NCBI RefSeq assembly: GCF_006345805.1
Contig: NC_042998.1
Coordinates: 103,292,001 to 103,356,000 of the forward strand
Direction: 5' to 3'
Length of the DNA stretch: 64,000 nt
DNA from: Octopus sinensis
Taxonomy: Eukaryota
In this document: one piece after another, positions 27,053 through 55,724 of the stretch
Layout: each line of letters opens with the position of its first letter
How positions within the stretch are numbered: the stretch's first letter is position 1
The notes under the pieces: model-generated
Seen by the model: only the letters and a program-made list of their open reading frames with translations
Told to the model about the DNA's origin: nothing
The model's database searches: none
Position numbers and translations under genes: made by a program

Positions 27053-27168
27053 CACAAATTATGTCTTTTCCGTCATAATGCCAATCATATTTCAGTCTCT
27101 CCATTCTTGATAATAAGCAATCGTTCTTACGAACTTTTGCATAGCAGTAATTATATTGTTGACAGCAT
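27053..27168 (-). CDS. Secreted PLA2-like gene, coding exon 3 (active-site helix with H48Y/D49N)
   Basis: Acceptor tttatttggctctcAG, donor GTG|GTAAGT, 116 nt, phase 2 to phase 1. Encodes (R)CCQQYNYCYAKVRKNDCLLSRMERLKYDWHYDGKDIIC, aligning with sPLA2 RCCxxHDxCY...C......Y.....I.C. Confidence 0.9.
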
Positions 27169-27325
27169 CTGAGAGCCAAATAAATAAATATAAATAAATT
27201 TAATATTTAGTGTTAACTAAAATAACTTCCTTCCACTTTATTTAAATCAATATATATATATATATATATATATATATATATATATATATATAAGGTGTTG
27301 AAAATATTAATGAAAAATGTATATA

Positions 27326-28343
27326 TCAGGTTGAGTAAAAAGTAAGCAATGTTTTGAATCATGAAGAATTTGTACCGGATTTTTGCAGAGGTTTGAATTT
27401 TTTTAAACATATTGTTTTTGCAATTGTCTGATAATACAGACTGACTTGCCCAAATTCATCAATAATTTAACATTGATATTTTTTTCAGCGTTGTTACAGT
27501 CATCTGAATTGGAACTGTCAAAGCGCGATATTCGAGCAATTTTGCTATTCAACTTCAAAAAAGGATGCAAAGCAGGTGAAACTGCTTGCGATATCAACGA
27601 AACGTTTGGTGAGGAAATAACCATTGAGTGGTCAGCTACAAAATGGCTTAAACGATTTCGCAGTGGACACCTTGAAAATCGTGAGCATAGTGGACGCCCA
27701 TCTGTCATCGATGACGGTCAATTAAAGACCATCATTGAAAAAGATCCACATTAAACCACTCGAGAACTGGCAAAAGAACTTCAAGTCAGCCAGGAAACTG
27801 CTTGCAACCATTTGCATGCGATCAGAAAATCAAACAAGCTGGACAAATTGGTACCACACGATTTAAATGAAAATCAGAAAATGCGCGGATATGAAATTTG
27901 CTCGTCGCTTTTCCTCTGTAACCAGACCGATCCATTTCTCGACCGTATTATAACTTGCGATGAAAAGTGAATTCTGTACAATAATAAAACAATGTTCATC
28001 GTAGTGGTTGGACCAAAATGAGGCGCCGAAAACCTTCCCAAAATCCGAGCACTCCAAAAAGAAGGTTAAGGTGACTGTTTGGTGGTGTACTGCTGGACTC
28101 ATCTACTATAACTTCTTAAAACCTGGAAAAACTATTGCTGTAGAAGCATATTGCCATGAAATTGCCAAAATGAACGACAAGCTGCTCTCCTCCATCCCAG
28201 ACCGGTCAATAGAAGAGGGCCAGTCATTCTTCAGGACTCGACCACACGTTTTACTAATGACGCTCCAGAAGTTTCCGCATTGTTTAAATAGACTGTGGTG
28301 AATTTCATGTTTCAAAACGTTGCTTACATTTTACTCAGCCTGA
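27326..28343 (+). mobile_element. Mariner (cecropia/Hsmar1-like) relic with C-terminal deletion
   Basis: TIRs tcaggttgagtaaaaagtaagcaatgttttgaa / ttcaaaacgttgcttacattttactcagcctga with TA TSDs. ELSKRDIRAILLFNFKKG...SGRPSVIDD...VPHDLNENQK...RIITCDEK. Confidence 0.92.
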
Positions 28344-28349
28344 TATACT

Positions 28350-53415: not shown

Positions 53416-54714
53416 CTGTTTTACTTCACTTAAAATTAGAAAAAACAATCTGTAAGTTCAGTTCATGTAACGATCGAACTTCTGGAGAAAGCAACTAAAT
53501 CTCCTCCCAAAGAACACCCTAACGTCATAAAATTAGGAAGGACATACTTGATTACGGTACTCCAAGACAACTCCAAAACTGTGGGGCACTCAGCATTAAA
53601 ATGTTCCTTTTGACCATAGCTAGTTCTACCTGATTAATCGTATCCGCTTCAGTTTTCAAATTCTCCCACAATTTTCAAATTTAAAAGTTATTAATTTTTT
53701 ATTTATTGGTTTAAGGTAAAAATGAATTTCATATCCTTAATTAGCATACGTGATTCCACGCAAGACATCCGAAGTTTTTTTTGGAGTGAGGGGGGGGGGG
53801 GGGTTCTTAGTGAAAATTGTGCCGGTGTTACTCTGAAAATTTACCCAAAACTACATCGGTAATCCAAATTTGATGTCCGTCACCTTTTAATTGCTTCAAA
53901 CATTTGCATATTTATATCCACGATGAAGCTTTTGCTCAGTACCTTAGACGAAATTTAACACTCAAATAACTGAACAATCGGGTAGTATGTGGAAATATAC
54001 ATAAGTATAAGGCACAGTTATTTCCTACGCATTAGCATACCATAATCTAGAGCTATTTCACTAAAAATGTTTTCGCAAGGAAAAACTGAACTCTGGGCGG
54101 AATAGCGCTAAACAAAGTATTACTGCATGTATGCGTGTACGTGAGAGTATTACAGCAACTCTCAAGTTAGTTTAACAACAAAGTAAGAAGTATTCAATAC
54201 TATATTTAGGAGCATATTTATATAAACATCCACAGGTTATATAAGAGCATATTTATATAAACATCCACAGGTTCGGGAAAAGAAGATGGGGATCAACACA
54301 AGCTGTATGGCGTGTATGAACATTTCAGGAAGTCTTGAAGATGTTAAAAGAAACTATAGAACAACAGGCAAAAGCTCGATAAGACTGGAGAAGAATTGCC
54401 AATGCACAATACACAGACATTAACTGATTACATGAAAGATGAAATGCTAACTATAACTGACGAGTTGAATAATGAATGTGTAAAGCGCCCTTAACAAAAT
54501 CACGACAACAAGATTCTTTCCATATGATAAATAGAAAGTGGTTATCTCGAATGAAAGGATTACCCTAAATAGTCTCCAGCATCCTTCATATTCCTCAGCG
54601 GAGTCGAATTTGATTGGGCGAGAGGAATGCGAGAGTGTTGGAAGCGACAACATTATTTGCTACGTGCATATTACATAAAGAAAAAAATTATTACACTCAA
54701 CTGTAATAATTGTT

Positions 54715-54900
54715 AGTGCAGAATTGTTAGTACGCCGGGCGAAATGCTTAGCTGTATTTCGTCCGTCCTCACATTCTGAGTTCAATTTCTGTCGAAGTCG
54801 ACTTTAACTTTCATCCTTTCGATGTCGATAAAATGAAAAATAGTCGAGCACGGGGGATCGACGAAATTTTTGGTCTTGCGTCGAAATTTGAAGCCATTAT
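54715..54900 (+). mobile_element. SINE family A with internal deletion
   Basis: gcagaattgttagtacgccgggcgaaatgcttagc...ttcatcctttcgatgtcgataaaatg. Confidence 0.7.
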
Positions 54901-55672
54901 TACACCAAACTCACGAGGAAGATGAAATTCATATTTTTCCCAAGGTATATGATGTGTTTTAAAAGAATGAGACCCATCAAAATAAATTAAATTCATTCAT
55001 TGTTTAGATAAACCACGTCTCCAAAGTGAGAAGGACTGCATTAGTAAAAAGTTACCATATAAAATTCTACACCAAAATTCCCTGCCCCCTTCCAAATATT
55101 ATGAACTAGTAGCCATCTTTAACTATTGTATTTCTGTTTGCGCGTGTGTGCACACTCGGGGGTGCAGGTTTGTGTGTATGTATGCATGTATGTATGCATG
55201 TATGTATGCATGTATGTATGTATGTATGTATGTATGTATGTATGTATGTATGTATGTATGTGTATGTGTATATATATATATATATATATATATATATATA
55301 ATATATATATATATATACACGAGAGTAAAGAATATGTACACCTAGTGTTTTGGGTATATATATATATATATATATATATATATATTATATATATATATAT
55401 ATACACGAGAGTAAAGAATATGTACACCTAGTGTTTTGGTTAGGGTTAGGGTTTTTGTTACGCCAAAAACGCGTAGTGTACGAATTCTTTACCTCTTCCA
55501 TATATGTATGTATGTATACATGTATTTTTTCTATGCATATATATATACGCACACACATATCTTTATATGTATGTATATATGCATGTATGTATGTGTGTGT
55601 GTATGTGTGCATGTACGTACGTTCTTACATATTCCACTAAACCACAGAAATACTTAATACTTAGTTACTTAC

Positions 55673-55724
55673 CTGCAACAAAAAAGCAGAAACTGAAATA
55701 TATTAAATAACGGAATAAAACCAT
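55673..55724 (-). CDS. Secreted PLA2-like gene, coding exon 1 (signal peptide MVLFRYLIYFSFCFFVA-G)
   Basis: ATG at 55724. 52 nt = 17 codons + 1 nt. Hydrophobic signal-like peptide ending at a consensus donor CAG|GTAAGT; phase 1 matches the next exon. Confidence 0.75.

Follow-up and report, generated by a model that had tools for sequence, protein, structure and literature searches.

A five-exon secreted phospholipase A2 paralog of Octopus sinensis with a replaced catalytic dyad and an exon of probable repeat origin

Catalysis by secreted phospholipases A2 (sPLA2s) needs the His48-Asp49 pair and the Ca2+ loop, according to passages of PMC8073766, and a gene of this family in which both residues are replaced raises the question of whether it is a decaying copy, a toxin, or a protein kept for some other role. 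Such a gene lies on the minus strand of the DNA analysed here, a stretch of 64,000 nt from Octopus sinensis (RefSeq assembly GCF_006345805.1, contig NC_042998.1, positions 103,292,001 to 103,356,000; hereafter the window). It is a spliced five-exon sPLA2 paralog, and on the sequence and model evidence below we find it fairly probable that its product is a secreted, folded but enzyme-dead protein, which would bind a partner or surface in ordinary tissue rather than act as a prey toxin.

Gene structure and splicing

Searching with the exon 3 peptide retrieved, at 100% identity, the O. sinensis RefSeq protein XP_036356690.1 (P0001; 175 amino acids (aa); the same protein as UniRef A0A7E6EP23), so the gene is not hidden, as had first been supposed; the O. 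bimaculoides RefSeq model XP_014774556.1 (P0002) was recovered by the same search. Mapping the RefSeq protein back to the genome gave five coding exons with intron phases 1, 1, 2, 1 over a coding span of ∼58 kb (Table 1), in agreement with the coding length (400 + 128 nt = 175 codons plus stop). The original prediction had chained exons 1, 3 and 4 by their AG/GT splice sites with phases 1, 2, 1. These three exons stand, exons 2 and 5 had been missed, and the phase order changes owing to the phase 1-1 exon 2. The residues of exon 1 are identical in P0002; the exon 1–2 join was taken from the models P0001 and P0002 and not from a contig, and the signal peptide was predicted from hydrophobicity, not with a dedicated predictor.

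Among 24 sequencing runs listed, 14 hold sequence words of exon 3, none of those being recorded as RNA, and six runs were examined. Exon 4 is covered to its borders by one contig in each of four runs (X1, X7, X9 and X14, with four organism labels), and in three of the four the loose end of the contig is exon 5. Moreover, the exon 2–3 and 3–4 joins occur in X1 and X9, and exons 2-3-4-5 are linked in two runs that differ in sequence type, one of them X1, an O. bimaculoides-type contig. Since each exon has only one near-identical place in the genome, these joins need spliced RNA and not a retrocopy, and the spliced form that had been asked for is found in transcript-like contigs. A direct splice from exon 1 to exon 3 was not seen, the upstream loose end in X1 and X9 being exon 2, although contigs show the main form only.

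Codons for Tyr48 and Asn49 have no differing letter in any of the four runs, and His-Asp codons were found in none of them. The other differences in exon 4 are three shared by X1 and X7, two of them non-synonymous, and a single synonymous one in X14 at 27113, seen at a depth of 2 and possibly erroneous; X9 equals the window sequence. The data span two sequence types, because the DNA run X10 carries all six P0002 amino-acid changes in the alternative terminal exon. Contig depth is 1043 in X1 versus 2–8 in X7, X9 and X14. Exon 3 was uncovered in the X10 DNA contigs and in the raw RNA reads of X19 (∼6% of the run), and the alternative exon was uncovered in the transcript contigs; the latter two are blanks rather than evidence.

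Table 1. Positions of the gene's exons, key codons and associated repeat copies (window coordinates unless a chromosome is given)
Feature	Position	Strand	Description
Exon 1, coding part	55673..55724	-	ATG and hydrophobic predicted signal peptide (residues 1–17; grand average of hydropathy (GRAVY) 1.8), phase-1 donor
Exon 2	50664..50750	-	87 nt, phase 1-1; encodes a propeptide-like stretch, basic and disordered, that contains RIKK, KKSR and the RxxR motif RHPR; probably repeat-derived
Exon 3	40168..40312	-	Helix 1 and Ca2+-loop region; Val-Arg insertion after Cys29; contigs X1 and X9 match its borders exactly
Exon 4	27053..27168	-	Helix 2 with CCQQYNYCY, and beta-wing
Tyr48 and Asn49 codons	27150..27155	-	Replace catalytic His48 and Ca2+-binding Asp49
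Intron 4	1..27052, continuing past the window edge (∼29 kb)	-	Separates exon 4 from exon 5
Exon 5	G000:C2:103289859-103289986, ∼2 kb outside the window	-	Helix 3, Asp99, Lys102, Cys91/96/98/105, stop
Alternative terminal exon	38652..38793	-	Used by O. bimaculoides model P0002; truncates the domain
Old SINE-like repeat copy over exon 2 and its acceptor	50602..50766	-	73% to consensus (112/154 aligned bases), two internal deletions; nhmmer E 4e-14
Second partial repeat copy	50584-50460	-	Follows the first copy

Catalytic residues, fold and constraint

The Tyr-Asn dyad of the original prediction is confirmed in the genome and in all four runs covering exon 4. For comparison, 170 of 171 proteins retrieved contributed a total of 207 homologous domains. 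His48 is present in 201 of them and Tyr48 in one, which is XP_036356690.1 itself, and the Tyr48/Asn49 pair is unique to this protein among the domains examined. The classes without Asp49 are mainly of otoconin type (His-Arg 19, His-Gln 13, His-His 6), one protein being named, otoconin-90. Of the 27 columns conserved in ≥70% of 158 His-Asp domains, 25 are retained; the exceptions are His48 and Asp49, which are invariant in this set because it was defined by them. All ten domain cysteines (29, 44, 45, 51, 61, 84, 91, 96, 98 and 105) are kept, as are the loop glycines and the network of Asp99, Tyr52 and Tyr73, the two tyrosines having been correctly called beforehand. Absence of Cys27 had been listed as well, but it does not point to decay, since the intact His-Asp paralogs of this chromosome carry Lys or Arg there and 63 of the 207 domains have no Cys at this position.

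Two further features set the domain apart. The predicted two-residue insertion in the Ca2+ loop is present, with Val-Arg following Cys29 in YGLYCVRGYGGFG and a non-canonical Cys29–Gly30 spacing; an insertion at this place occurs in 4 of 147 motif matches, two of which are the present gene. At position 102, which we assign to the lipid channel, the octopus protein carries Lys, whereas all 133 motif-anchored His-Asp domains (133 of 133) have an uncharged residue. Without a general base or a Ca2+ ligand, and with a lengthened loop, the protein would not be expected to catalyse, and lipid entry would be poor because of Lys102. That the protein is enzyme-dead seems to us very probable.

Exons 3 and 4 match PF00068 with E 2e-4 and E 4e-4, each singly under the curated cut-off, and the same family is precomputed for P0001. 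A sequence search of the PDB gave 153 sequences at E ≤ 0.001, the best being Lys49 homologues (E 8e-19, ∼30–40% identical). An AlphaFold model from a 13-sequence alignment predicts three long helices and a beta-wing, i.e. an sPLA2 fold with presumably five disulfides behind a disordered pro-segment, with mean predicted local distance difference test (pLDDT) 71, predicted template modelling score (pTM) 0.60 and most of the core at 88–93; pLDDT is <50 over residues 18–27 and 29–51, the pro-segment. A model from the single sequence (pLDDT 47) was discarded and this one used instead. Foldseek returned sPLA2s with probability 1.00, the top match being human group IIE (template modelling (TM) score 0.74 by target).

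Divergence between the two octopus sequence types was compared with a neutral rate of 6.6%, i.e. 56 of 851 intron positions differing between an X10 contig and the window. In exons 1–4, with their 314 non-synonymous sites, 5–7 amino-acid changes are observed versus 20.7 expected, which gives a ratio of 0.24–0.34 (P 3e-5 to 4e-4) and remains at P ≤ 0.01 with the neutral rate set to 5%; the protein is ∼96% identical between O. sinensis and the O. bimaculoides type. A dN/dS near 1, the value expected of a young pseudogene, is therefore not borne out, and by this rough two-lineage estimate a young pseudogene is excluded and the gene is under purifying selection. In the alternative terminal exon there are 10 substitutions in 141 nt, six of them non-synonymous and all six matching P0002, so this exon diverges at the neutral rate and is likely to define a minor or non-functional isoform. 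No orthologue outside Octopus was found among the best 150 of 558 representatives, of which 10 and the paralogs are named, or in the other protein searches.

At least three sPLA2 genes with intact His-Asp are present in the genome, one on C16 and a pair at C2:148.15-148.19 Mb, all three with a Lys-Arg site immediately upstream of helix 1. XP_036356690.1 is 37–44% identical to the C2 pair and to O. bimaculoides XP_014780833.1 (P0004), and the intron phases around the domain exons are common to all. The C2 paralogs lie on the same chromosome 45 Mb away and share the ten cysteines, the absence of Cys27 and a similar C-terminal helix. Unlike XP_036356690.1, they have an intact dyad (His48-Asp49), a loop of normal form, Ala at position 102 and the Lys-Arg site, and nothing in their proteins corresponds to exon 2. 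A maximum-likelihood (ML) tree of 24 of the 207 domains leaves the origin of XP_036356690.1 unsettled on a long branch, a single octopus clade being neither shown nor rejected (approximately unbiased test, p-AU 0.335); a first ML tree was discarded because the octopus paralogs had been left out. The intact octopus paralogs provide direct controls for the Tyr48/Asn49 pseudoenzyme.

Some observations on the paralogs themselves may be added. XP_036356061.1 (P0003), at G000:C2:148179000-148193400 (-), and P0004 of O. bimaculoides are 73% identical, whereas the introns of the window gene diverge by ∼6.6%; should the two be orthologous, strong positive selection would be indicated, as expected of a venom enzyme. 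In the second intact C2 paralog, at G000:C2:148149600-148166900 (+), the last coding exon is duplicated, giving two alternatives (148.155 and 148.167 Mb) that each occur in RefSeq isoforms; XP_029658029.1 (P0005) and XP_036356059.1 (P0020) are further RefSeq entries for intact octopus paralogs with the features given above. The third His-Asp gene, at G000:C16:34335800-34342750 (-), keeps Cys27 (YGCFCG, CCFDHDLCY) and has extra cysteines, and a protein search with it returned no database protein.

A repeat in exon 2

Exon 2 and its acceptor lie in an old copy of an interspersed element of ∼240 bp, resembling a short interspersed nuclear element (SINE), which gave 107 nhmmer profile hits in 250 kb, 26 of them in the window. 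Exon 2 alone scored 23.8 bits against the repeat profile, compared with 1.8 bits for the best of 1000 shuffles, and none of the four other exons tested matched. A single alignment spans acceptor through donor at 73% identity; 47 longer copies have a median of 88%, in a set biased to young copies. Aligned with the end of the repeat, the acceptor agrees at 20 of 28 bases; 3 of 132 pyrimidine-rich AG sites do at least as well, counting the acceptor itself. We regard the derivation of exon 2 from this repeat as very probable.

The repeat carries loose A-box and B-box patterns, 64 bases apart, on one strand only. Because this strand is opposite to the sense of exon 2, the exon is likely to be antisense to a tRNA-type SINE. 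A search of Rfam with one repeat copy gave no match at E ≤ 10, and no tool named the family. As in the antisense Alu exonisation of primates, the A-rich end of the repeat supplies a pyrimidine tract and an AG acceptor on the opposite strand and the resulting exon preserves the frame; in contrast to the Alu case, the octopus exon comes from a SINE-like element and is part of the main transcript form in both sequence types. It would be a clear case of a repeat becoming a protein-coding exon in a conserved octopus gene, and repeats have often been proposed as a source of novelty in octopus genomes.

Exon 2 is included in the models of both species as well as in transcripts, and exon 3 is without the Lys-Arg site found before helix 1 in the paralogs. 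From its RxxR motif and the missing Lys-Arg, the repeat may have supplied a replacement processing site, although we consider cleavage there no more and no less probable than its absence.

The repeat is dense in the window (26 places), e.g. at 23809-24033, at 34441-35085 with three in tandem, and at 47697-47922. One strand of its consensus already contains a pyrimidine tract and an AG, and other octopus genes may have exonised it as well.

Possible functions and alternative explanations

The reading as a folded, non-enzymatic secreted PLA2 homolog, put forward in the original prediction, is well supported by spliced RNA, apparent purifying selection, a predicted sPLA2 fold and a loss specific to His48/Asp49. 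In such a protein the signal would be cleaved near residue 18, and a furin-type convertase would cut the repeat-derived basic segment at RHPR in place of the lost Lys-Arg site, leaving ∼13 extra residues before helix 1; the product may then act as a receptor or matrix ligand. Replacement of His48 is known from the vipoxin inhibitor chain and from group XIIB. With these His48-substituted sPLA2s (1vpi, 1aok and group XIIB among the PDB/Foldseek matches) the octopus protein shares a replaced general base in a kept fold, and it differs from them in that positions 48 and 49 are both replaced (Tyr, Asn), with a loop insertion and Lys102. In PMC9320362 an engineered H48Q form of PLA2G10 is presented as a ligand of PLA2R1.

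The C-terminal region of Lys49 myotoxins is cationic and membrane-damaging, and a venom role, as a membrane-active toxin of this kind or as an inactive chaperone of an intact salivary PLA2 resembling the vipoxin acidic chain, has to be weighed. The snake Lys49/Asn49/Ser49 homologues (PDB 1mc2, 1xxs and 4h0s) are the best PDB sequence matches, with an sPLA2 fold and Asp49 replaced, and passages of PMC8073766 describe Lys49-type homologues as inactive yet kept. However, these matches are distant, the leading Foldseek match is an active human enzyme, and the three aligned entries keep His48, which is replaced in XP_036356690.1 too. Toxicity of the snake proteins is tied to the C-terminal region (a title cited in PMC8073766), whereas the octopus protein is without a cationic tail (2 Lys/Arg and 3 Asp/Glu in the last 22 residues; domain net charge +2, pI 8.1). 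Passages of PMC7693380, PMC4280546 and bioRxiv 10.64898/2026.04.09.716377 place sPLA2 in cephalopod salivary glands, and the high depth in X1 is a weak hint of restricted expression, contig depth being a poor measure of it. Yet the single sPLA2 group among the rows listed for the O. vulgaris posterior salivary gland proteome (PMC7693380 Tables S4/S5) is 73.7% identical to XP_014780833.1. This value matches the 72–73% of the intact paralog P0003 and not the 44% of XP_036356690.1, which identifies the known salivary enzyme, as far as those rows go, with the intact paralog. Slow evolution, in comparison with the 73% of the P0003/P0004 pair, also weighs against a Lys49-like toxin, as do the near-neutral charge and the tail, although a minor venom role is possible. 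The toxin or toxin-chaperone role first proposed thus gained no positive support and met some evidence against it, and we consider it unlikely. The RefSeq name, 'basic phospholipase A2 homolog 2-like', is a best-hit label which suggests a myotoxin without support, and the gene is annotated by name only.

Otoconins are acidic proteins of the vertebrate ear stones, and otoconin-90 and otoconin-22 are built on non-catalytic sPLA2 domains without Asp49. A comparable extracellular-matrix or biomineral scaffold (e.g. in statocyst, beak or sucker cuticle) would fit with otoconin-type domains being the main non-Asp49 class and with the persistence of a dead sPLA2 fold under selection. But these domains keep His48 and are mostly paired in vertebrate proteins of 295–1130 aa, whereas the octopus protein is single-domain with Tyr48, slightly basic and devoid of a Ca2+ ligand, which makes a scaffold rather improbable. 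Still less credit can be given to residual lipase activity by another route or to restoration of the residues by RNA recoding. Asp99, both tyrosines (52 and 73) and the glycines of the loop persist, and RNA recoding is widespread in coleoids, but His48 is nearly universal among the homologous domains, A-to-I editing cannot turn this Tyr codon into His, and contigs of four out of four runs match the genomic letters at both codons, though contigs drop rare variants. Equally slight is the chance of a transcribed but decaying pseudogene or of a sequencing error at both codons. The long branch in the trees and the O. bimaculoides RefSeq model, which ends in the alternative exon without the catalytic helix, would agree with decay; this explanation is largely refuted by the recurrence of these codons in four runs, which represent two sequence types, by an open frame over five exons with ten cysteines and constraint relative to the intron, and by X1, in which an O. 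bimaculoides-type contig joins exons 2–5 while the alternative exon drifts neutrally. In practical terms, the O. bimaculoides RefSeq model misses the exon of the catalytic helix.

Against an enzyme-dead ligand of ordinary tissue, several points must also be counted. The selection estimate mixes RefSeq P0002 (exons 1–3), one contig (exon 4) and one DNA contig (neutral rate), and its range of 5–7 changes arises because two of the five exon 4 contig differences are unlisted. The six bases of the dyad would be unchanged by chance with 66% probability, so their sharing dates the loss before the species split but shows no selection for Tyr/Asn, and for exon 2 taken by itself the constraint is not significant (2 changes vs 4.4 expected, P 0.17). 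The fold model, with its modest mean pLDDT and pTM, was built on 13 sequences. The assignment of position 102 to the lipid channel and of RHPR to furin-type cleavage is presumptive, and a proteome can miss a protein, the comparison with Tables S4/S5 being confined to the rows listed.

Overall, XP_036356690.1 resembles other non-catalytic sPLA2s, and its characters are not those of active enzymes, Lys49 myotoxins or otoconins. Snake venoms and vertebrate otoconia already provide examples of dead sPLA2 folds, to which the octopus gene adds an independent invertebrate case. More speculatively, it may be an octopus-specific pseudoenzyme that arose in two steps: an sPLA2 duplicate would have lost its dyad, its lipid channel becoming plugged, and a SINE in antisense orientation would have become a constitutive exon, encoding a new convertase-cleaved propeptide in place of the lost Lys-Arg processing site. 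The product would be a secreted ligand restricted to certain tissues, perhaps a non-enzymatic factor of venom or of venom protection. We hold this scenario only tentatively; if true, it would mark the first description of a non-catalytic sPLA2 from a mollusc. In the searched literature, which misses most subscription journals, no study was found of a non-catalytic mollusc sPLA2 or of SINE exonisation in octopus, and the O. sinensis gene was absent under its accessions, its locus tag and 'Octopus sinensis' with 'phospholipase A2'; nor is it named in the supplements of PMC11202624, PMC9712504 (readable files) and PMC13230822.

The window holds other elements apart from the gene. Pfam matches of any kind were found in 9 of 23 open reading frames (ORFs). 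Mariner-type transposase fragments (PF01359) lie at 20117-20539 and 35634-36068, and the strand opposite to them produced the highest-scoring false exons when splice sites were scanned. Retrotransposon remnants at 2357-2854, 24611-25492, 29704-30141, 33850-34224 and 61279-62908 match RVT_1 and zf-RVT, all under the Pfam cut-offs, and a weak GIY-YIG match among them, likewise under its cut-off, suggests a Penelope-like element. The introns also contain a 37-bp minisatellite (5.9 copies) at 41727-41943 and an 86-bp tandem duplication at 55268-55439.

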